This document shows, piece after piece, positions 6 through 37,082 of a stretch of DNA of 50,282 nucleotides (position 1 is its first letter; every line of letters starts with the position of its first letter). The stretch covers positions 1-50,282 of the forward strand of contig CAYSLA010000005.1 of assembly GCA_964431685.1 (NCBI GenBank). The letters are read 5' to 3'. Under the pieces are notes generated by a model that did not search any database, was not told where the DNA came from, and saw only the letters and a list, made by a program, of their open reading frames with translations. Both the position numbers and the translations under genes were made by a program. The stretch is from an uncultured bacterium (GTDB lineage Bacteria > Armatimonadota > UBA5829).

Positions 6-81
6 TGGCTCCCCCGCCTGGACTCGAACCAGGAACCTACTGGTTAACAGCCAGCCGCTCTGCCGATTGAGCTACAGGGGA
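6..81 (-). tRNA. tRNA-Asn (anticodon GUU), CCA encoded
   Basis: The reverse complement folds as a cloverleaf. Acceptor TCCCCTG/CGGGGGA, D-arm GCTC-AATCGGCA-GAGC, anticodon loop CT-GTT-AA, T-arm CCTGG-TTCGAGT-CCAGG, discriminator G plus CCA. Same layout as E. coli tRNA-Asn. Confidence 0.9.
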
Positions 82-11169: not shown

Positions 11170-11266
11170 ACTACGTCATGCCGGTCCTGAATCAAGTTCA
11201 GGATATCCGGCAACCATCCGGAGAAGGGATGGGCCCTGAAACGAGTTCAGGGTGACGTGGTTTCTC
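11170..11266. repeat. composite palindromic element, copy A (multi-hairpin, closing stem ACGTCA/TGACGT)
   Basis: Shares its flanks and central hairpin with 20843-20925: ACTACGTCATGCCGG...CCGGCA[A/C]CCATCCGGAGAAGGGATGGG...AGTTCAGG[G/A]TGACGTGGTTTCTC. It contains CCTGAATCAAGTTCAGG and CCCTGAAACGAGTTCAGGG. Confidence 0.8.
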
Positions 11267-15445: not shown

Positions 15446-16270
15446 TCAAGTGTCCACTATCCATTGACTCTGACTGCCGGTATCTCGACTTGCGGTCTCT
15501 ACGGCAATAAGCGTGGCGAGAACAACTCGCAACGTATCCCCGCCGATCTTCTCACAGGAACTAATGCCTGTGACAGTCACGTAAGTGGCGCCAGATGGAA
15601 CCGTTCCATAGACTTTCACGGTTGCGCCGTATCCGTCGTCGATCATAAACCATCCCGCTGACGGATTCTTCTCGCCGACTCTCCCAGTAGTCCTCACGAG
15701 GAGGCCAATATTGTTCAAGCCTATACCACCGGCAGACGCCGGGTTGCCTGGATCCGCTGATGCTTCCGAAATCACCACCGCCGAGAGCCTTGTTGTTAAG
15801 CGCCAGCGGGGCAATCGACCCGCTGCCAACAACCACATGCTTGACCGCGAAGATGTAGCGCTCACCAGACGGAAGTGTCGGCAGCAGTGCCCGAAACACT
15901 GACCTTCTGGCCGACAGCCACTCCGGAACTGACGCCCACGACGCGAATGCCGAATGTCCGGTCGGTTGACCCGAAGTAGAACCCGTCAGAGAGCACCGCT
16001 GTGACCACCGCCGTGCAGGAAACACCCGCATTGTCGGCTGAGGGGTCGCCGCCAAGGCCATAGAGCCCAAGCCCGGTGCCAGACGTCCATCTTTCTGGCG
16101 ACGTATCATGGTAGTCGTATGAAACGCTCAGAGGGTTGTTACTCGCGTCAAAGCCGTCAGACTGCAGCTTGATATACGTCTCACCCGCAAGTACATCGAC
16201 TGTCGCCGTAAGGGTTGACCACTTATTGAGGTCCGTACCCTCCAAGGGGTCCGCCCCATGGCTGAACAGA
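15446..16270 (-). pseudogene. paralog of 11308-12426, 5'-truncated with two internal frameshifts
   Basis: Homology runs through three frames (15862-16305, 15561-16109, 15446-15865). The N-terminal part is replaced by the ISL3 remnant. Confidence 0.7.
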
Positions 16271-16495
16271 GATGCTTGCCGACCATATCGACGGATTGCT
16301 GGCATATATCAAACACAACATAACCAACTCCTATGCGGAGTCCATAAACGGAATGATTCAACTACTAAAAGCCAATGCACGAGGCTTTCGAAGATTCGAG
16401 AACTTCAGGGTAGCCATACTGTTTAACTACGGCAAACTGCATCTCTACCCACAAGAAATCTCATAGAGCCTCGTTTTTCTTGCTGCCGGGCTGGG
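16266..16495 (+). mobile_element. ISL3-family IS remnant (transposase C-terminal ~65 aa plus probable right end)
   Basis: ORF 16272-16466 reads DHIDGLLAYIKHNITNSYAESINGMIQLLKANARGFRRFENFRVAILFNYGKLHLYP, which matches the ISL3 transposase C-terminal signature. The frame opens immediately after a stop, so the rest of the transposase is absent. Confidence 0.65.
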
Positions 16496-20842: not shown

Positions 20843-20925
20843 ACTACGTCATGCCGGACTTGATCCGGCACCCATCCGGAGAAGGGATGGGTCCGGCAGC
20901 CAAGTTCAGGATGACGTGGTTTCTC
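20843..20925. repeat. composite palindromic element, copy B (72-nt core 20846-20917)
   Basis: Closing stem ACGTCAT/ATGACGT. Hairpins GCCGGA-cttga-TCCGGC and ACCCATCC-ggagaag-GGATGGGT. Flanks are identical to copy A. Confidence 0.8.
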
Positions 20926-23091: not shown

Positions 23092-24171
23092 CTAAGCTAT
23101 CTGCTGGAGCTGCTCTTTGGTAACCTGATGCTCCAGCGGCTTGCCCGAGAAGAATCTCTCCAACTCCATAACTGCAAGATTACCAACGCGGGCGATGTTG
23201 TTAGAGGATACGCCCGAGATGTGCGGAGTAAAGATCACGTTGGGCAGAGTCCGAAGAGGATGATCCTCGGCAGGCGGCTCCGGGTCAGTGACGTCCAGAC
23301 ACGCCGTTATCCTGCCAGTCTTGAGCTCTTCGTACAGCGCTGCTTCGTCTATCAGAGAACCCCTCGCCGTGTTGATGATGATAGCTCCGTCTTTCATCAT
23401 CTTGAGGTTCTGCGCGTTTATCATGTGATGGGTTTCGGGAAGGCTTGGTGCGTGCAGAGAGATTACGTCGGACTGTCTGACCATATCGTCCAGACTGTCG
23501 CAGCTCACCACGCCCATCTCTTCGGCCCGATGCCGGGATACGAACGGATCGTAGAGCAGGGTCTCCAAGTCAAAGCACTTCAGCAGTCTGATGAAGTGTC
23601 TGCCCGCGTGCCCGGCGCCTACAACGCCGACGTTGATGCGGTAAGTCTCCTTTATGCGCTCCATCTCCACTGGATCCCGCCAGCCACCGTTGTGGATATG
23701 GTCGTTGAGCTGGTAACACCTCTTCATTGATGAGAGCATGAGTCCGAGTGCGTGCTCAGCTACACCGACCGCTATTGCAGAAGCCGCACTGCTTACCGAT
23801 ATGCCCCTGTCCCAGACGGCCTCGGTGACTATGCTCTTGACCGAGCCTGCGGCGTGAGCGATCATCTTCAGAGAGGGGGCCCGATCGAGCAAGTCAGCCG
23901 TAAGCAGCGGAATATCCCAACTGGTGATGCATCCATCGGCCCCGGCGATGACCTCCTTGACCCTGGCAGGATCACCATCCGGCATTGGGCCGTTGACAAC
24001 CTCGGCAAAACCCTTCAGCCTTTCGATATCCTGAGAAGCGATAATCCTCCTTCCCAGGTTGTTTGGAATGGAGTCCGGTATCATGACTGCTATTCTTGGT
24101 TTCAAGTCTATTCCTCGTGAATTACTCGTTGCTGGAAAGCGGTATGCCAAAGCAACGTAGAGTCGCGTCAT
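23092..24171 (-). CDS. D-isomer-specific 2-hydroxyacid dehydrogenase family protein
   Basis: GVVGAGHAGRHF (NAD fold), NTARGSLIDEAAL, LDVTDPEP, PHISG. The start may be downstream (MIPDS...). Confidence 0.8.
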   Translation of the reverse strand: MTRLYVALAYRFPATSNSRGIDLKPRIAVMIPDSIPNNLGRRIIASQDIERLKGFAEVVNGPMPDGDPARVKEVIAGADGCITSWDIPLLTADLLDRAPSLKMIAHAAGSVKSIVTEAVWDRGISVSSAASAIAVGVAEHALGLMLSSMKRCYQLNDHIHNGGWRDPVEMERIKETYRINVGVVGAGHAGRHFIRLLKCFDLETLLYDPFVSRHRAEEMGVVSCDSLDDMVRQSDVISLHAPSLPETHHMINAQNLKMMKDGAIIINTARGSLIDEAALYEELKTGRITACLDVTDPEPPAEDHPLRTLPNVIFTPHISGVSSNNIARVGNLAVMELERFFSGKPLEHQVTKEQLQQIA

Positions 24172-24840
24172 CCTTAACCCGATTCAGGACTGATCCCGCC
24201 ACTCGGCATGTGCGGGACAAGTGCCGGTATGGCCTTGTTTCCGGCAGAAGTGAGGAATCTGCCCTTTGAATCCTCGGCACGCTCAGCAGATTCCTCCGTT
24301 CCATCGCAATGATGCGTGCGACGAGCGTTAGTCGCCTGACTGCCCCGCGTTTTTCAGCGGCACGCTCATGTCGGTACTGGTGACCTCATTGTCACCATCA
24401 GTATCGCCGTTTAAGAGCAGCGTGTCAAGAGTGACGGACTGACCTGCCCAGACGACCACACCGGGGAACACCCGTCTCAGGAATCCGGAAGCGCTCACCT
24501 CGACGTCGTACACACCGGGGTCGAGGTTAAGAAACGCGTAGCCGCCAGGGTTCTGGGCAAGAGTAACGCTCTGGCTGGCAACGGTCACACCCTGCTGCTT
24601 CAGGTCGATAGAGACCGGAAGCAAATCCAAACTCCCAATGAAGCCCTCGAGAGTTATAGACCCTCCCAGGGAGCTTATGTCGCCGCCGTATCTGATGCCG
24701 CTTGAGAGCCTCAGCTCGTCCATACTGCCGAGCAGGTTGTACCAGTTGTGCCCGTCTTGTCTCCCGGCCACCGTCGCGGGGCCGAGCACAGGATCCGGCG
24801 TGCCCATGCTAGTAACATCCTGCGCAAAGACCTGAACTCC

Positions 24841-24864
24841 CCCTGAATCAAGTTCAGGGCAAGA
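24841..24864. repeat. 24-nt palindromic unit R1 (CCCTGAATCAAGTTCAGGGCAAGA)
   Basis: Exact 20-nt core. It lies between LamG segments ...GGRNII and GVQVFAQD, where the paralogs have KFWKN. The frame is not preserved here. Confidence 0.9.
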
Positions 24865-25134
24865 TAATGTTCCGCCCGCCGGACTCTGCGTCCCTCTGCC
24901 ACGTCACCGCGGCGTGAGTCCAGGTGTTCAAGTCCCAGTCGGTTGACGGATCCATAACAGACTGCCAACCGCCCTTGGCATACCAGCCAACCGACATGCG
25001 CATCCGGCCGCCGGTGTAGACCAGCGACCAACTGTAGTCAGCGCCGGTATAGTTCTGCAGGAGCACCCAGTAGCTATTCTCCAAAGTCGGATATAGCCAC
25101 GCTTCGGCAGTAAGGCTGTCTATTCCAAACCCAA

Positions 25135-25154
25135 CCCTGAATCAAGTTCAGGGC
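25135..25154. repeat. palindromic unit R2 (20-nt core)
   Basis: Exact core CCCTGAATCAAGTTCAGGGC. Removing 22 nt (25133-25154) joins YKKV to GFGIDSLTAEAW in frame. Confidence 0.9.
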
Positions 25155-25177
25155 GACTTTCTTGTAGACGCCGCTCT

Positions 25178-25201
25178 CCCTGAATCAAGTTCAGGGCAAG
25201 C
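25178..25201. repeat. 24-nt palindromic unit R3
   Basis: CCCTGAATCAAGTTCAGGGCAAGC. A clean 24-nt insertion within LamG coding sequence. Confidence 0.95.
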
Positions 25202-25219
25202 TATAGTTAACTTGCAGAG

Positions 25220-25243
25220 CCCTGAATCAAGTTCAGGGCAAGC
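25220..25243. repeat. 24-nt palindromic unit R4
   Basis: Identical to R3 and separated from it by 18 nt (6 codons, LQVNY region). Confidence 0.95.
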
Positions 25244-25322
25244 TGTTGCCGAAGCTGGTCTGTCCGGCGATGTAGTGATTGGGCTGGGCGGCTAGACCAG
25301 TGTTGAGCGTCCCATGCACGTC

Positions 25323-25342
25323 CCCTGAATCAAGTTCAGGGC
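25323..25342. repeat. palindromic unit R5 (20-nt core) at a gene-fragment junction
   Basis: Exact core with a tail (TCGA) that differs from the consensus. It supplies the TGA stop of ORF 25336-27774 and directly abuts the truncated LamG fragment. Confidence 0.9.
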
Positions 25343-27774
25343 TCGATTCCGTCGCGCAGAAGCACCATCCGAAGACTGGGGACGATGTTCATGTTCTTCT
25401 CCGGAAGGTCGGTGCCCCCTGAATCAAGTTCAGGGCAAGCTCTGGGATCGGGCGGGTAGAAGTAGGCGAGAGTGCCGTTCCCATATTGTCCGCCTGGATT
25501 AACCCAGGGATTCTGGAAGACTACGTACTCATTCTCCTGCCACCATATCGCTATCGCCCAGGTGGACATACCCTTCGCGCCCATCCACCACACCTTCGGC
25601 GCCATAAGCCGCTGGTCGATGGAAGGAGCGTCTATGAACTGATGGATGGTTTGTGTGTAGTAGGTCCAGACCTCTTTGCCGGCCGGGTACGCAGCAATGG
25701 CCGCCGGCGAAGCGATGTTGAGCGCATCGTTATTCTCTGGTATGAGAATATCAACGTGGTTGCGAAGAGCATCATAGGCCTCGGCGTTGTAGACGTAGGC
25801 ACCCATCTTCACGTCCTTAGCGTGCGGCTGCAGACGGAATGCGTCTATGAAGTTACGGACTCCCTGATACGCGTAGGGCTGCGGTTCGTCAATCTGAACA
25901 AACGCGTTATCAAGCCAGCCTTTGGCCGCCAAGTGAGCAGCAAGCGGCTCGTAGTAGCTGGTCACATATGGCGTCGCGCTCTCCACTGTGGTGTCTGCGA
26001 GAAGAGGGCCGGACTCGTGGCCGATTGAGTGAGTACTCAAGTTCAGTTCATCCAAAACACGGGAGTACTCCACGTCGTATTCTGCGGGGAACGCCGGGAG
26101 CGTGCCTGTGTACCACACGTAAGGAATCAAAGGATTGGTCTCGGCTATCTTGTAGCGAGCCATCTCGGAGACATAATCTCTCGTCAGGCTGTATTTGTCC
26201 ACGCGCTCAGTGACCTTGTGGAACGGAAAAACCTCGGCGCTGGCATATCTGGACATCTGGAAGGATGTCTTGCAGCTCGGCCGCTCCGGCAGAACGAAAT
26301 TCCACACCTTGAGTTCAACCGGCACATTGACCACGCCGGCTGACGTATGCAGGTTCACCTGGCCGTTGTAGGTTCCCGCAGGCATCTGCCTGGGAATGGT
26401 CACGTCTACCCAGATAATGATATTGGGATCACCCGCGTCGAACGACACCGGGGCAAATTTCACCAAAGGATCCGGCAGGTTACCGGTGAATGCGGAGCGT
26501 ATCGGTTCGGTCAGGAACTGGCCCGTCTTCGACGGAGTGTGAATAGGCACATAGCAGGCGCGGCGAATATCGAAATTCCTCTGTGGAACGGTTACGCCGC
26601 CGGGACCAGTAAGACTCGCGCTGACTGAGGTAATCGCTCCCGCCGAGGTTGGGCGGAAGACCAGTTGCAGCGCCTCCGACTCATTACGCGCACATGAGAT
26701 AGAGACCTTGGTACGGTTGGCGCTCGGTGCCTGAGCATTCTCCAGAACCTTTTTTGTGGTGGACGTATACCAAAGACTGCCCAGGCTGCCCGATGGCAGC
26801 GAGTATGATATGTCTTCCTCAACCCATTCGGTGGCTGCAAGCTTGGTAACGTTCAGCGTCTGAGACGGAAGGGAAGATGCCTGCTGACTCGGAACGTGCG
26901 GTGTTATCCCTTCCAGCGGAGAGTAGTACAGGTCATAATACTTTGTGCCACTCGAGGCTGCGTTCAGGACGAACCCCACCTGGCACTCGCGCAAAGAGAT
27001 ATCGTCAGCGGCGGACCCCAGTATACGCTCAAACCGCACTTGCAGTTTGTCATTGATCCAACCCGCTTTGTCCCACGTGTTGAAGTAGTACTCGCGTGAA
27101 TACCATCCGGTTGCAGGTATGTACGGATCGCTGTAGGTGTGCGATACGGGCTGCCACCATAGGTCGTTGACGTTGGAATACGCAGCGGACGAGCCAGACC
27201 CCTTCGCCCAATGGGAGTACCGATACCACGTGTTGGGGTTAACGGTGACATACTGCCAACAGGCGGACCGATCCTGGGCGGTGCCCTGCACAGTCATACA
27301 CCAACTGCCGTCGTGTGAGTTCTGCTGCAAGACAAACGATGCCGGCTGGTCTATGTTCCATCCCACCGGCACGCCGCCGGACTGCTGCTCGAAGTTGCCG
27401 TTCACTACCAGTTCCTGAGTTCCCACCACGATCTTGTAGGCCGCGGACACATTGTCGCTGATCAGGTTGCCGCCCGCGTCGACCTCAACGAGTTTCACGT
27501 TGTCATAAGAGAAGTACTCGTGCTGGAACTTGAACTCGGCCTTCTCATTTAGCCAACTGGTGATCGTCTGAGGCGTCAGATTGAGCGCATACGAACCGGC
27601 TGACGGCACGCTCACAGATATGCGAACTCTGAACGGGTAGTAACTGTCCGTCCAGGGAGCCGCATATACTCCCAAAGCACCAATCACCAGAATGACCGTG
27701 ACGGCCAGAATGCAGAAAAACGATTGCCTGGTTCTGCCAAGGATAGTCTTAGACATATTGTTGTCCATCATCAT
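25336..27774 (-). CDS. DUF4091-like putative glycoside hydrolase (GH123-like), N-terminal membrane anchor; C-terminus truncated
   Basis: 812 aa. Motifs ARNESEALQLVFRP, ELKVWNFVLPE, GNGTLAYFYP...PSLRMVLLRDGIE. The usual continuation (DYE...; compare SIRWEVWAESLQDYAILQ in 48494-50095) is missing, and the ORF stops inside R5. Confidence 0.75.
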   Translation of the reverse strand: MMMDNNMSKTILGRTRQSFFCILAVTVILVIGALGVYAAPWTDSYYPFRVRISVSVPSAGSYALNLTPQTITSWLNEKAEFKFQHEYFSYDNVKLVEVDAGGNLISDNVSAAYKIVVGTQELVVNGNFEQQSGGVPVGWNIDQPASFVLQQNSHDGSWCMTVQGTAQDRSACWQYVTVNPNTWYRYSHWAKGSGSSAAYSNVNDLWWQPVSHTYSDPYIPATGWYSREYYFNTWDKAGWINDKLQVRFERILGSAADDISLRECQVGFVLNAASSGTKYYDLYYSPLEGITPHVPSQQASSLPSQTLNVTKLAATEWVEEDISYSLPSGSLGSLWYTSTTKKVLENAQAPSANRTKVSISCARNESEALQLVFRPTSAGAITSVSASLTGPGGVTVPQRNFDIRRACYVPIHTPSKTGQFLTEPIRSAFTGNLPDPLVKFAPVSFDAGDPNIIIWVDVTIPRQMPAGTYNGQVNLHTSAGVVNVPVELKVWNFVLPERPSCKTSFQMSRYASAEVFPFHKVTERVDKYSLTRDYVSEMARYKIAETNPLIPYVWYTGTLPAFPAEYDVEYSRVLDELNLSTHSIGHESGPLLADTTVESATPYVTSYYEPLAAHLAAKGWLDNAFVQIDEPQPYAYQGVRNFIDAFRLQPHAKDVKMGAYVYNAEAYDALRNHVDILIPENNDALNIASPAAIAAYPAGKEVWTYYTQTIHQFIDAPSIDQRLMAPKVWWMGAKGMSTWAIAIWWQENEYVVFQNPWVNPGGQYGNGTLAYFYPPDPRACPELDSGGTDLPEKNMNIVPSLRMVLLRDGIEP
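25417..25440. repeat. 24-nt palindromic unit R6, in phase inside the DUF4091-like ORF
   Basis: Identical 24-mer. On the minus strand it occupies exactly 8 codons (GCT TGC CCT GAA CTT GAT TCA GGG = ACPELDSG). Confidence 0.95.
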
Positions 27775-27898: not shown

Positions 27899-28843
27899 CT
27901 ACTGACCGATCTCGTCAATGTTCGGGATAATAGTCCCTACATCGGCAGCATCAATGGTGTTGTCACCGTTCACATCACCGTTAGTGAGCGAGAAGTTGGC
28001 AGAAGCGGTCTGCCCGATCTCGACCACCACTCCGGAAGCTTTCTGCCGAAGGAATCGGCCCGCGTTGGCGTAGACGTCGTAGGTTCCCGGTTCAAGCTTG
28101 TTGAAACTGTATGAACCCGGATTGCTGGACACGGTCACCGTCTGCGTGGCAACCGTATTGGCCCCCTGTTTGAGCTCAACCTTGACCGGGACCGGCGCGA
28201 AGCTCGCACTGACGTCCTGAAGCGTAATCTGCCCAGCGATGTTGCCCACGGGCACTCCGTATCTGAGGACATTGGACATCCTGAACTCATCGATCTGGCC
28301 GAGGAAGTTGTACCAGGGATGACCGTCTACCCATCTACCGCCCACACTGGCAGGGCCGCCAATTGGCGCCGCCAGACCAAGCAGCGTAACATCCTGCTCG
28401 AAGACCATAACGCCGTTCTTCCAGAACTTGATGATGTTAGCTCCGCCGGTGTCTGACCTCTTCTGATAGGTAACAGCAGCATGCTGCCAGGGCGCGCTCG
28501 GCCCCGCCTCCCACTCAGTCACGTCATCTTGTACCAGTTGCCAGTTCCCGCTGGCATACCAGCCAAAACCCATGCGCATCTTGCCGGCAACATAGGTGAA
28601 GCTCCACTGGTAGTTGCCGCCAGTGTAGTTCTGGATCATAACCCAGTAGCTGTTCGCCTCGTAGGGCTTAATCCAGCACTCAATCGTCAGATCGTCGGTA
28701 TAGGAACCAAGAAGGGCGTTAGCGGGCAGGTCAATCTTCTTATACCCTCCATCGTAGACAATCTTCAGGGCATTTCCAAAACCCGCTTTGTCACTGGCAA
28801 CGTAGTGGTCTGCCTGTATCGCCTTCAGCCACAGTGATACCTG
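27899..28843 (-). pseudogene. LamG / CarboxypepD_reg / dockerin-like paralog lacking start, signal peptide and N-terminal ~55 aa
   Basis: The stop-to-stop frame is open from 28843. Homology begins at QADHYVASDKAGFGNALKIVYDGGYKKIDLP (~28816). The first Met in the track (28639) lies inside the LamG domain. Confidence 0.75.
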
Positions 28844-29879
28844 TTACCACCTGCTTCAGGAACCCTGGCGCGGATATCGCCACGTCATACGTTCCGGCCT
28901 CCATATTGCCGAAGCTGAATATTCCAGGGTTGCTCGTGAAAGTCACGGTCTGAGTCTGGAGCACCGTGGCGCCCTGCTTCAGCTCTACCGTCACCGGGAC
29001 GAGCGTAAGGTCTCCGACGTATCCCTGCAGTGTAACTGTGCCGCCAATAGATATCTCCTGGGTTCCGTACCTCAGTACATCTGAGAGCCTGAACTCATCG
29101 ATCTGGCCCAGCACGTTGTAGTAAGGATGGCCGTCCATCCTCCCACCAAGTGTGGCGGGGCCGTTGACCGCGGTCGGTTCGCCAGTATCCGGATCGGGTC
29201 CTCCTTCGCTGAACCCCCAACCAGTGACATCCTGCCGCAGGACTTGCTCGCCGTTCTTCCAGAACTTTACTATGTCACGCCCGCCAGTGTCGGATCTTCT
29301 CTGAACAGTTACAGCGGCGTGATTCCAGACACCGATTTCCCAGTCCGTCGAACTGTCGGTGACGTCCTTCCATCCGCCAAAGCCGTACCAGCCCAGATAC
29401 ATGCGCATCTTCCCAGCATCGTACAACATACCCCAGTTGTAGTCGCCGCCGGTATAGTTCACGAAGATGACCCAGTACGTGTTGGGCTCGACCGGGCGAA
29501 TCCACGCCTCCATCGTAAAGTCGCTCGGCCCCATCCAGAACTTCACATTGTCCGGATAGGGCACTTCAGGGAAACCTACATTCTTGTAGATGAACCCGGT
29601 ATAGTGAATGCGCAGAGCGTTGCCAAAACCGGCCTTGTCACTCACAACGTGGTGATCGACCTGTCCGGCCAACCCCGTATTGAGCGTTCCATTTACGGGG
29701 TTAGGAGCAGAATCAATAACTGTCGTGGACGTCAGGTCTTCGTCAAAATGAAGCAGTAGCCGAGTGTTCGCGTCCGCGTCGAACGGCTGGGTCCAGTCGG
29801 TGTAGTTCTGTGCGCACAGCGGCGCGCAAAGCGCTACAAACACAGCAAGAGAAAGCCACACCAATTGTCTTCTCAACAT
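28791..29879 (-). pseudogene. LamG / CarboxypepD_reg paralog lacking its C-terminal dockerin-like end
   Basis: RBS GGAAGGAGA, then ATG 29879 (MLRRQLVWLSLAVFVALCAPLCAQ signal peptide). The ORF ends ...GFLKQVVTGITVAEGDTGRPLRCQ*, where the paralogs continue about 35 aa to the NGDxDGDN motif. Confidence 0.7.
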
Positions 29880-35171: not shown

Positions 35172-37046
35172 TTAGATATTGGCCTTGACCTCGTCGCCAA
35201 ACCCTATATATCGCTTCTCGCGAACGTCATAGATGTGGCCACTGGTGTCCAGCTTGAGGGTGCAGTCAAGTCCCTGGCCTTTCTGCATGCGTGATTCCTG
35301 GGGCACATAGTAACTGGTGCGGAATGACTCTTGGACCAGCGGGTAGTACACGACGTTGTCCGACCCCACAAACTTGCCTATCCGATAGTACGGCGCACTC
35401 TTCTCAGGATAGTACGGTGTGGTAATTGTCACGGCCCGCAGGGGGTAGTCCTCGCCCAGTGCCTTTCGGAAGACCTCGCGGTACGCACGCGCCATCGACT
35501 CCCTGCCTGCCATCGGATCGTGGTAAGGTCCCGGCAGCGGATCGGGCAGATAGACTTTGTAGTTGCTCAGATATGAGTTGACGAACACTGCGCGCCCGGC
35601 TCCGTGTTTCTTTGAGGTGACCAGGGGCAGAGCATCCGTAAATGTGCTGATCACTTCCGCCTGAACTGGCTCGTCATAGCAGGTCACGTAGTTGACCTTC
35701 TCCAGCAGATAGGGCCAGTCAAAGCCTATGGCTCCGGCGTATCTGGTACCCTCAATGCCAAACCTGAACTTGCTGTCCCGCTCCTGAAGGGACTCGAGTG
35801 TAGCGCCGTGAATATCCGCGAACAGCTTGTCCATATAAAGGCGGTACTCCAGCCACGGCGCAAAGGTGTAGATCTCGTCGCCGTCTCCGGCTCTCAGATC
35901 GTCCTTGCTTATCTCGCCGGCAACGCCTCCGCCGCCCACCTCCACGTCGGAGCGTGCCAATGTCTCACTTATGTTGCCCAGCTCAGCCGGTTGGGTTTCA
36001 CCGAATGACTTGTAGGACGTTCCCCAGCTCCTGTTGAACCGCGAGAGGTCGCCCGCATACGACTGCTCCATCCACTTTCGGAAGGCCTCGATGTTCTTTG
36101 GCGCGTATGACATCCAGCTCTGCTGCTCGTCGCCGGACAGGTATGTATCTACCCCCCACTTCTTGGCCACGTCCGCGTTCCGGTTCACGTGCCACACGTA
36201 TTGGGAAACGAACGCGTCGTCTCCAAGCACCATCCGGCTTTCATCGGCCGGCCTCCAGAGTCGATTATCCTCGGCTCTCGCAAGGTATGAGAGAACTCCA
36301 GCGGAGTACTGGAAGATCGGCCTGATACCGTGCACGGCCAACGTGCCAAAGAAGTCATCCAAGACCCCATCCCACTCCTCGTCAGACAGCTTCTGGGACG
36401 CATAGTAGTTTGCGTACGCCGTACTCCCCACAACGCCCACATCTCTCTGAGTCTTGAGCGCGTGCAGTGCCCAGGGCCTGTTGAACTGGAATGGCGCTTC
36501 GCCCCACACGTCGAAGACGAACTCCTCAACTTTGTGGTCGAAATCGTCCAGTCCGCAGGCCACCGGTTTCTTGACCACGTCGACGATCTTCCCGGCGTTC
36601 TTGAGAGTCACCGACAAGAAGACCCCACTGCTCTTCGCATCTGAAGTGTCCATATTGAATCGCGCTTTGCCGCCGTCGACACGCCTGGAGTCGGACCAGA
36701 TAAGACGATCGTAACCGTCGTGGACTTCAGCCTGCAAGGTGTCTCCGGCGGAGGCCGAGTCGAGAACCACATCAAACGTTCCTCCGGCCTTGGGGTAGCC
36801 TGACTTTGCTGTCTGAACTTCCTTGATTCCCGGCCGTGTGCCTTCGACTGGGACGACACAGAAGTCCAACGTCCTGCCATACATGTCCTTGAGCCATAGA
36901 TTTGCGAGGTTTTCGCCCTTCCTGACAACCGAAAACGCCTCCGCCAGCGGCACGCGGACTGCGCCTGCTCCGTCCGTATTCACGGCGAAAGCCGCGCTTG
37001 AGCAGAGCTCATAGTTCTTATCTCTGAGTTCGCTCACCAGCGTCAT
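35172..37046 (-). CDS. GH42-like family protein, middle segment of a split paralog
   Basis: 624 aa. FRKWMEQSYAGDLSRFNRSWGTSYKSF. Colinear with residues ~430-1090 of the 1208-aa protein. Confidence 0.65.
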   Translation of the reverse strand: MTLVSELRDKNYELCSSAAFAVNTDGAGAVRVPLAEAFSVVRKGENLANLWLKDMYGRTLDFCVVPVEGTRPGIKEVQTAKSGYPKAGGTFDVVLDSASAGDTLQAEVHDGYDRLIWSDSRRVDGGKARFNMDTSDAKSSGVFLSVTLKNAGKIVDVVKKPVACGLDDFDHKVEEFVFDVWGEAPFQFNRPWALHALKTQRDVGVVGSTAYANYYASQKLSDEEWDGVLDDFFGTLAVHGIRPIFQYSAGVLSYLARAEDNRLWRPADESRMVLGDDAFVSQYVWHVNRNADVAKKWGVDTYLSGDEQQSWMSYAPKNIEAFRKWMEQSYAGDLSRFNRSWGTSYKSFGETQPAELGNISETLARSDVEVGGGGVAGEISKDDLRAGDGDEIYTFAPWLEYRLYMDKLFADIHGATLESLQERDSKFRFGIEGTRYAGAIGFDWPYLLEKVNYVTCYDEPVQAEVISTFTDALPLVTSKKHGAGRAVFVNSYLSNYKVYLPDPLPGPYHDPMAGRESMARAYREVFRKALGEDYPLRAVTITTPYYPEKSAPYYRIGKFVGSDNVVYYPLVQESFRTSYYVPQESRMQKGQGLDCTLKLDTSGHIYDVREKRYIGFGDEVKANI

Positions 37047-37082
37047 GCTGAACTCGATTCAGCACCCAGACGTTCCCTTCTC
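37041..37082. repeat. partial copy of the composite palindromic element, at an ORF boundary
   Basis: CGTCATGCTGAACTCGATTCAGCACCCAgacgtTCCCTTCTC. Compare the reverse complement of element A, CGTCACCCTGAACTCGTTTCAGGGCCCATCCCTTCTC. It contains the palindrome GCTGAA-ctcga-TTCAGC (37047-37063). Confidence 0.7.

Follow-up and report, generated by a model that had tools for sequence, protein, structure and literature searches.

The DNA analyzed here – a stretch of 50,282 nucleotides from an uncultured Armatimonadota bacterium (lineage UBA5829; contig CAYSLA010000005.1 of assembly GCA_964431685.1), referred to throughout as the window – carries six exact copies of a short hairpin packed into 600 bp of host-gene sequence, within a truncated GH123 glycoside hydrolase gene and the remnant of a LamG gene. 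We favor, with a probability of roughly 70%, the interpretation that a miniature hairpin repeat has recently inserted six times at the DNA level, and that this repeat is the bare, tag-less stem-loop of the CGTC-tagged REP family.

The 20-mer CCCTGAATCAAGTTCAGGGC has six exact matches on the plus strand (starts 24841, 25135, 25178, 25220, 25323 and 25417, with start-to-start spacings of 294, 43, 42, 103 and 94 bp), each forming 7-bp arms (CCCTGAA/TTCAGGG) around a 5-nt loop. Three copies are followed on the plus strand by AAGC and one by AAGA, and four of the six reading frames through the unit are open. These particulars had all been given in the original prediction and are confirmed. Allowing up to 3 mismatches yields 8 matches in the window, where 0.02 are expected (100 shuffles), and adds to the six exact copies just two diverged intergenic relatives, at 11185 and 11234. 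Folded as single-stranded DNA, the unit has a predicted energy of -6.5 kcal/mol (z = -3.9).

On the gene strand the full unit is 5'-AGCTTG-CCCTGAA-CTTGA-TTCAGG-3' (24 nt), and all six copies, designated e1 to e6, lie head-to-tail in the same orientation. The extent of each insertion was set solely by identity to this 24-mer, which gives 24, 19, 24, 24, 19 and 22 nt for e1 to e6; three units are thus full and three have a shortened 5' end (22, 19 and 19 nt), with the 3' end common to all. Copies e1, e3 and e4 share 25 nt (AGCTTGCCCTGAACTTGATTCAGGG), e6 matches the 24-mer from CTTG onward, and e2 and e5 match it from G onward; the bases 5' of the core are AGCTTG in three copies and ATCTTG, ATCGAG and AAGTCG in the others. 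Inspection by eye revealed no target-site duplication and no flank complementarity at any of the six copies, which are as follows:

e1, positions 25418 to 25441, minus strand: full 24-nt unit (AGCTTGCCCTGAACTTGATTCAGG), in frame in the GH123 gene, to which it adds ACPELDSG; an exact copy, absent from 7 of 7 homologs.
e2, positions 25324 to 25342, minus strand: 19-nt unit (GCCCTGAACTTGATTCAGG) at the GH123/LamG junction; its internal TGA ends the 811-aa open reading frame (ORF).
e3, positions 25221 to 25244, minus strand: full 24-nt unit in the LamG remnant, reading (S)LP*T*FR in the gene frame, with two TGA stops.
e4, positions 25179 to 25202, minus strand: full 24-nt unit, likewise inside the LamG remnant; it keeps the frame and contributes two TGA stops (LP*T*FR).
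e5, positions 25136 to 25154, minus strand: 19-nt unit, 5'-shortened, causing a frameshift; identity to the 24-mer ends at the G before the stem.
e6, positions 24842 to 24863, minus strand: 22-nt unit (CTTGCCCTGAACTTGATTCAGG), causing a frameshift; 15 nt (KFWKN) are missing at the site.

The sequence in which these copies lie belongs to two genes, and a third feature of the window supplies a reference for their earlier state:

GH123 glycoside hydrolase, positions 25336 to 27774, minus strand: truncated ORF of 811-812 aa with a Pfam GH123_cat match, carrying e1 and having its stop codon within e2.
LamG/CarboxypepD_reg/dockerin-like paralog remnant, positions 24328 to 25323, minus strand: the first ~60-70 codons are missing and e3 to e6 interrupt it; there is no other lesion.
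LamG paralogs A1 and A2, positions 27899 to 29879, minus strand: joined out of frame near 28800 and free of hairpins; the reference for the pre-insertion sequence.

Removal of all six units (132 nt) leaves a single uninterrupted frame of 1104 codons with no other lesion. GH123 homologs are ~855 aa long and 47-53% identical to the window protein (the closest named ones come from Pirellulales and Verrucomicrobia metagenome-assembled genomes), and alignment with 7 of them reveals one private insertion of 8 residues in the window protein, the ACPELDSG encoded by e1, at a site that reads YFYPPxPx|GxxLxEKD in the homologs. Among the copies in the LamG remnant, e3 is seen directly, as a clean 24-nt gap (GGCAAC|GCTCTG) in the DNA alignment with A1 and A2, whereas the status of e4 to e6 follows from frame and from residue colinearity with the paralogs: the flanks of e4 (NY|ESGVYKKV) are colinear with HYTGFIYKNV of A1, removal of e5 brings the frame back (KKVVGFGID), and at e6 the 15 nt encoding KFWKN, present in both A1 and A2, are missing. 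Judged by these comparisons, the six copies are evidently insertions and not native coding sequence. They are also recent, because they are identical to each other and the host sequence is otherwise intact.

Copy e2 marks a rearrangement as well as an insertion. The window GH123 protein stops at RDGIE, where all 7 homologs go on with D[YFM]EYA and ~60 conserved residues, and ~65 C-terminal residues are missing at e2. Directly after e2, in another frame, the sequence VHGTLNTGLAAQ matches PVNGTLNTGLAGQ in the interior of A1, a paralog that lies 3 kb upstream in the same window; the LamG part has therefore lost its 5' end and is joined to a GH123 gene that has lost its 3' end. The end of GH123 homology (RDGIE/D) and the beginning of the LamG paralog interior (VHGTLNTG, for which A1 reads PVNGTLNTG) fall within 3 nt of e2, and removal of its 19 nt yields RDGIED-VHGTLNTG in frame. 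The reconstructed remnant protein matches Laminin_G_3 and CarboxypepD_reg in Pfam. An attempt to place e1 on solved GH123 structures gave an alignment of the N-terminal domain only.

The original prediction held that the elements are foreign to the gene and that the intervals between them are not spacers, and both points are borne out: 7 of 7 GH123 homologs lack the e1 residues, both LamG paralogs lack the copy at 25220, and the intervals are colinear with the host genes. Its description of the intervening pieces as parts of a LamG gene applies only to those beyond the copy at 25323 in the downstream direction, the copy at 25417 and all sequence upstream of it belonging to the GH123 gene. Likewise, the sequence is host-gene DNA, as proposed, although it is no longer simply coding on the minus strand, with GH123 ended by the TGA in the copy at 25323 and LamG reduced to a broken remnant. 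Within that remnant e3 to e6 are predicted to be no longer translated, two bringing TGA stops and two shifting the frame, and overall the copies appear to have inactivated or truncated their host gene, with no evident host-gene function for the elements.

An intact frame of 1104 codons could also be read as a sign of recoding, with the units bypassed in translation (compare T4 gene 60 and yeast mitochondrial 'byp') or cut from the mRNA to give a GH123-LamG-dockerin protein of 1104 residues. Each unit is a stable hairpin and some GH123 homologs carry LamG domains, yet recent pure insertions equally predict the intact frame. Recoding is very unlikely because, on inspection of the sequence, none of the six copies is bordered by a matched pair of take-off and landing codons, and because the skipped segments would need to have three different lengths. 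Moreover, the ~65 conserved residues of the GH123 C-terminus are gone, and elsewhere the unit occurs between genes, within other hairpins and as tandem arrays.

The cluster itself is real. Together with its surroundings (1.3-2.1 kb) it is 100% identical in contigs of JGI 3300022556, 3300025145, 3300013091 and 3300025279, ENA ERZ27245470 and ERZ27245789 (MEGAHIT k141) and Logan SRR5214704. These are at least 7 contigs from several samples and different assemblers, some carrying single-nucleotide polymorphisms relative to the window elsewhere, and they therefore exclude the assembly chimera that the original prediction had allowed for. Several contigs end within the cluster, as is expected of a repeat; three independent assemblies break at or beside e1 and e2 (the end of L123 and the starts of L230 and L233; window ~25340-25440), and the hairpin cluster evidently fragments short-read assemblies. 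No empty or polymorphic allele was found for any of the six sites: every contig with the neighboring proteins has the identical cluster, and the sole contig from a divergent strain (L228) ends before reaching it. The cluster is fixed in the population.

That short identical palindromes at irregular short spacing, in a place where contigs break, might be an artifact or some other class of repeat – a chimera, an adapter, a CRISPR-like array or a series of transcription terminators – is scarcely credible in view of the identical contigs from JGI, ENA and Logan and the presence of the core in genomes of cultured isolates. An Rfam scan of 24000-26000 (E-value mode) gave chance-level matches only and no family, a tandem-repeat scan found no periodicity, a terminator scan found nothing above chance, and no T-tract follows five of the six copies. 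A CRISPR array, which has evenly spaced repeats and foreign spacers of 26-72 nt, was rejected, as the would-be spacers of 18-274 nt are colinear pieces of the host genes, there is no cas-like gene among the scanned ORFs, and periodicity is lacking.

The original prediction did not recognize the repeat as belonging to a described class; that the class is undescribed is not supported. The exact 19-mer core occurs at more than 119 genome loci (one genome per species), where ~4 are expected by chance, and at 99 metagenome loci, in addition to the two diverged copies in the window. Its carriers include Bacteroidota, Treponema, Sulfurimonas, Nitrospirota, Melainabacteria, Patescibacteria, Alphaproteobacteria, Chloroflexota, Armatimonadota and others, cultured isolates among them. 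The typical genome form is (C/T)GTCA-CCCTGAA-CTTGA-TTCAGGG-TCT, with an 8-bp stem, a 5-nt loop and a TCT tail, and among the matches listed the exact core is preceded by an (N)GTCA tag in 88 of its 209 distinct contexts. Most genome copies occupy AT-rich intergenic DNA, and frequently an inverted relative (e.g. GTCATGCTGAACTTGATTCAGCATC) stands 10-20 nt away, with compensating stem changes and a constant loop and tag. From its sequence the core is thus the stem-loop of the CGTC-tagged REP superfamily (PMC3733652), and the six copies a tag-less variant of 19-24 nt, not a new class; small GIY-YIG genes flanked by such hairpins at seven loci, described below, add to the likeness. A full-text literature search with six 15-mers of the hairpin returned no paper with the sequence, and the peptide strings encoded by the hairpin are not in the supplements of PMC3733652.

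The remaining 121 of the 209 distinct contexts, again among the matches listed, have the core without a tag, and 29 of these lie in frame inside long ORFs. In HisF the core corresponds to an insertion of 8-9 residues relative to solved HisF structures, and further in-frame host genes, identified by reading translations, are LeuRS, Mfd, CarB and GlnE; colonization of ORFs by the hairpin is therefore widespread and often tolerated. Partial 5' tags are enriched before the untagged exact cores of the genome scan (TG in 9 of 43, P = 0.001; TTG in 4 of 43, P = 0.01), which fits a series of 5'-shortened units.

The sequence AGCTTG...CAGG is a discrete unit in other organisms too. AGC precedes TTG and the core in 24 of 75 distinct metagenome contexts, and in 17 of these 24 the 24-mer lies 5' of GA. 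In many cases the landing site is precisely the tag/stem boundary of a different hairpin repeat, or, viewed on the other strand, just after (CG)TC. In termite-gut contigs the 24-mer splits the repeat CTCGCAAT^GACGGG, of which one unsplit copy, CCTCGCAATGAC, is found in L183. Another locus, L161, has six copies in 600 bp in one orientation, three of them in head-to-tail tandem, and is the only other dense one-orientation cluster seen among the matches listed; its host sequence has no Pfam match. Beside tagged copies (L161, reverse strand 690-800, and L116, L036, L007 and L068) a block made up of the 3' arm, the TGAC tag and ~10 nt of flank recurs in tandem, as in GGATGACGGCAGAGATGTGAG, repeated five times, which duplicates the reported cut region of Ssn-type nucleases.

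Tagged members of the family are present in the window as well, four of them in intergenic DNA (11234, 20847, 24166 and 37041), together with a nested hairpin:

Positions 11174 to 11213, plus strand: CGTC hairpin with its loop replaced by a second hairpin (TCCTGAATCAAGTTCAGGA), intergenic.
Positions 11234 to 11257, plus strand: family copy (CCCTGAAACGAGTTCAGGGTGACG), intergenic, in which TGACG is the reverse complement of the CGTCA tag.
Positions 20847 to 20872, plus strand: canonical CGTC-tagged copy (CGTCATGCCGGACTTGATCCGGCACC), intergenic.
Positions 24166 to 24190, plus strand: canonical CGTC-tagged copy (CGTCATCCTTAACCCGATTCAGGAC), intergenic, ~140 nt downstream of the stop codon of the LamG remnant.
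Positions 37041 to 37066, plus strand: canonical CGTC-tagged copy (CGTCATGCTGAACTCGATTCAGCACC), between two genes.

The outer hairpin at 11174-11213 is of the type found at 20847-20872 (CGTCATGCCGG-ACTTGA-TCCGGCAC). Similar nesting of one hairpin in the loop of another occurs in L009, L080, L091, L109, L070 and L117.

How might six copies have entered so short a segment? We propose that they were pasted as, or into, single-stranded DNA, probably at a replication fork, because they share a single orientation, the unit forms a hairpin, it lands in the loops and feet of other hairpins, and there is a GC skew. The skew of the plus strand is -0.04 and 86% of coding bases are on the minus strand, from which the gene strand, carrying the NTS-sense form (see below), would be the probable lagging-strand template, a placement that is weakly indicated, the skew being confounded by gene orientation. 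Insertion would be strongly local, and one copy may favor the next. The simplest origin of the GH123-LamG fusion would be that two direct copies recombined, with loss of the DNA between them, and that e2 is the resulting scar; the chance that an insertion falls within 3 nt of a pre-existing junction is ~0.2%.

The main rival as to mechanism is local generation without a dedicated enzyme, by template switching or copy-choice from a nearby hairpin such as that at 24166 or an earlier insertion, in which a nascent strand, once stalled, would copy the hairpin at another place and use microhomology to resume at its original site. This would account for six copies in 600 bp with none of the tag-less form in the other 49.7 kb (and for the similar situation in L161), for a variable 5' extent with a fixed 3' end, and for the tandem array in L161. 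It also suits e6, where 15 nt are gone and the paralog has at that site a sequence (ATCAAGTTCTGG) similar to the loop and arm of the element (ATCAAGTTCAGG), as well as the CAAGTT located 9 nt downstream of e3 and the lack of a transposase in the window. However, the identical 24-mer, including the non-palindromic AGCTTG, recurs with sharp boundaries in unrelated organisms at unrelated sites, which is hard to obtain without a defined donor and defined cut sites, and the junctions of e1, e3 and e4 are clean, with no microhomology at either end. We consider template switching a possible origin of the cluster, albeit one with the odds clearly against it.

A more speculative reading would make the tag-less 24-mer AGCTTG-CCCTGAA-CTTGA-TTCAGG a mobile module of its own, of very small size, spread by polymerase-dependent copying anchored at one end; a nick might, for example, prime synthesis along a small template, either a hairpin or a circle. 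We regard this as doubtful. If true, it would explain the fixed 3' end, the graded 5' truncations and the head-to-tail arrays, and also the absence of target duplication, the landings beside (CG)TC and the high rate of local hops. Finding the identical unit in organisms of the termite gut, of groundwater and of the window would then imply that the machinery too is shared or exchanged across phyla, and the cluster would represent six fresh, datable events revealing how CGTC/Ssn-type repeats propagate.

Candidate enzymes were sought by clustering ORFs near the hairpin across the 119 genome and 99 metagenome loci, which revealed nothing specific to the AGCTTG form. Small GIY-YIG ORFs (90-120 aa) are situated near exact-type hairpins in seven loci, at 19-150 bp and with hairpins on both sides in six of the seven; three of these ORFs were scanned and all three match PF01541. 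In L026, L061, L100/L210, L001, L029 and L087 the GIY-YIG genes lie amid alternating CCTGAA-type and GCTGAA/GCCGAA-type hairpins, a layout that resembles the published NTS-ssnA-NTS arrangement, yet the published pattern for Ssn-related motifs (SRM) misses these hairpins. In several metagenome contexts the untagged hairpin is found 20-350 nt from ORFs that, judged by eye, resemble transposases. One group of these has an IS110-like C-terminus and the other a possible DDE/integrase-like ORF (L136, L178 and L222; L140, L155, L158, L179, L196, L213 and L214); in the DDE/integrase-like group one flank is constant and the other differs, as if the hairpin marks the end or the target of an insertion sequence.

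Pfam scans of 20 large ORFs and the JGI Pfam calls revealed no HUH/Y1 protein, reverse transcriptase, GIY-YIG protein or integrase in the window, and a tblastn search of the 50 kb with a GIY-YIG query was negative; Ssn, the small GIY-YIG nuclease known as the partner of this family, is thus not encoded there. The scanned content consists of glycan-utilization and housekeeping genes and a 64-aa ISL3 transposase fragment (JGI call) at ~16270-16470. The suggestion that a RAYT or IS200/IS605 TnpA mobilizes the repeat is not supported: such an enzyme is not the known partner of this family, and none is encoded in the 50-kb window.

Several observations count against the interpretation of the cluster as insertions of a CGTC-type repeat made through single-stranded DNA. 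The insertions are read from homologs of 47-53% identity and from paralogs, not from orthologs, and no empty allele was found. The six copies fail several of the features that define the family, namely the CGTC tag, the 8-9-bp stem, the arrangement and the intergenic location, and the published SRM pattern (HGTCWYN(0-2)YYVSBRHN(0-5)WNVSBRGN(0-2)RNCYNB) matches none of the six, nor the tagged consensus of the CTGAA-CTTGA-TTCAG type; its one match in the window, where 0.64 are expected by chance, is unrelated. The steps involving single-stranded DNA and a replication fork depend on orientation and on a GC skew confounded by gene orientation, and the 5'-truncation series consists of three copies here plus modest statistics elsewhere. 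If e2 is a recombination scar, the in-frame joining of GH123 and LamG after its removal is a 1-in-3 coincidence, whereas an in-frame join is expected if a functional fusion gene came first. Finally, no candidate copying enzyme was found within the 50-kb window.

The window as a whole is a glycan-utilization locus, with three GH123-like genes, GH42, GH32 and heparinase-like genes, several LamG/CarboxypepD_reg paralogs and a DUF1559/N-methyl protein; a tRNA-Asn gene is located at its start (6-81, minus strand). A1 runs out of frame into the interior of A2 (28790-28840, minus strand), reading …ITVAEGDTG|RPLRCQ* and continuing in a different frame with DHYVASDKAGFGN. The tandem LamG/dockerin-like genes have thus been rearranged a second time, at a junction that carries no hairpin.

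For CGTC-type hairpin repeats, the description of their partner Ssn in 2025 gave a nuclease for single-stranded DNA, not a route of copying. Most copies of the family are old and intergenic, and their insertion boundaries are therefore not visible. At this locus the earlier state can be reconstructed from homologs and paralogs, so that boundaries, lengths of 24, 22 and 19 nt, orientation, the absence of duplication and the landing sites are directly readable. The locus also illustrates the effects on genes – an insertion of 8 residues, early termination, shifts of frame, and the probable fusion of two genes by deletion – and the cluster is thus a natural record of how CGTC-type repeats insert and affect genes. 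For annotation, such hairpins create split and spurious ORFs and break assemblies.

Among known systems, the closest relatives are the CGTC-tagged REPs, a superfamily with a CGTC head (TGTC and CCTC variants), a stem of 8-9 bp starting with A-T, a loop of 4-5 nt and a short tail (Di Nocera et al. 2013, PMC3733652). These are mostly intergenic and found in many phyla, with head-to-head dimers dominating, head-to-tail ones negligible and occasional intragenic members, and the 2013 survey found no dedicated transposase for them (PMC3733652). The 19-mer CCCTGAA-CTTGA-TTCAGGG is identical to the stem-loop that tagged copies have in, among others, Bacteroidota, Treponema, Sulfurimonas, Melainabacteria and Alphaproteobacteria, and the 5-nt loop and the occurrence of intragenic members are shared. 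Unlike these, the six copies begin with AGCTTG or a shortened form of it in place of the CGTC head, their stem is 7 bp because the A...T closing pair (ACCCTGAA/TTCAGGGT) is replaced by G...N, and all six are intragenic, head-to-tail and packed six to 600 bp.

We equate the CGTC-tagged REP superfamily with dRS3/NTS, also called Ssn-related motifs, an equation of our own. These motifs are bound and cut only as single-stranded DNA by small GIY-YIG nucleases (Chenal et al. 2025, PMC11893778), whose genes are themselves flanked by an Ssn-related motif; for Neisseria SsnA the GTC upstream of the palindrome and the C just after it contribute most to cleavage and binding, surface-protein genes are flanked by clusters of NTS that reduce the integration of incoming DNA, and only 2% of NTS repeats are intragenic (PMC11893778). 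The tagged form resembles NTS as a hairpin with a CGTCA head, and in both cases repeats cluster near surface-protein genes. This invites the idea that the hairpins are kept as recombination-control sites, at which an Ssn-type nuclease for single-stranded DNA shapes recombination or transformation among LamG/dockerin surface-protein genes. The cluster does sit among rearranged LamG paralogs (the out-of-frame A1/A2 junction and the fusion at e2) and is fixed and identical in all samples. However, the six copies have neither the CGTC head nor the T-C after the stem, and by sequence lack both flanking determinants of SsnA, the upstream GTC and the C following the palindrome; moreover, they disrupt genes instead of flanking them, and the window has no ssn gene. 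A role in recombination control is accordingly improbable for these copies.

In REPINs, GTAG-tagged repeats form inverted doublets and are associated with a RAYT (HUH/Y1) gene (Bertels and Rainey 2011, PMC3116915). Like them, the repeats described here are miniature hairpins that are often clustered, and REPIN movement is thought to proceed via single-stranded DNA; unlike them, the six copies lack the GTAG tag and are in direct orientation, and there is no RAYT gene in the window. The SDR4-6 repeats of Nostoc are reportedly mobile-looking sequences of 21-27 nt, nested and found inside genes, with no known enzyme; they are said to be cyanobacterial and unrelated in sequence.

The Rickettsia palindromic elements (RPEs), to which the original prediction had compared the cluster, reportedly lie in frame within protein-coding genes, where they are tolerated. 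Classic RPEs are ~100-150 bp long and usually present as one copy per gene. Copy e1 is similarly in frame and tolerated, as are the copies in HisF, LeuRS, Mfd and CarB elsewhere; unlike classic RPEs, the unit measures 19-24 nt, and the frame stays open at e1 alone, e2 to e4 introducing TGA stops and e5 and e6 frameshifts. The comparison understated the likeness, since RPE-4 and RPE-6 correspond to the CGTC-4 and CGTC-1 families (PMC3733652). Set against all of these systems, what is unusual here is the tag-less 24-nt form, the 5'-shortened copies, and the placement of six units head-to-tail within 600 bp of gene.

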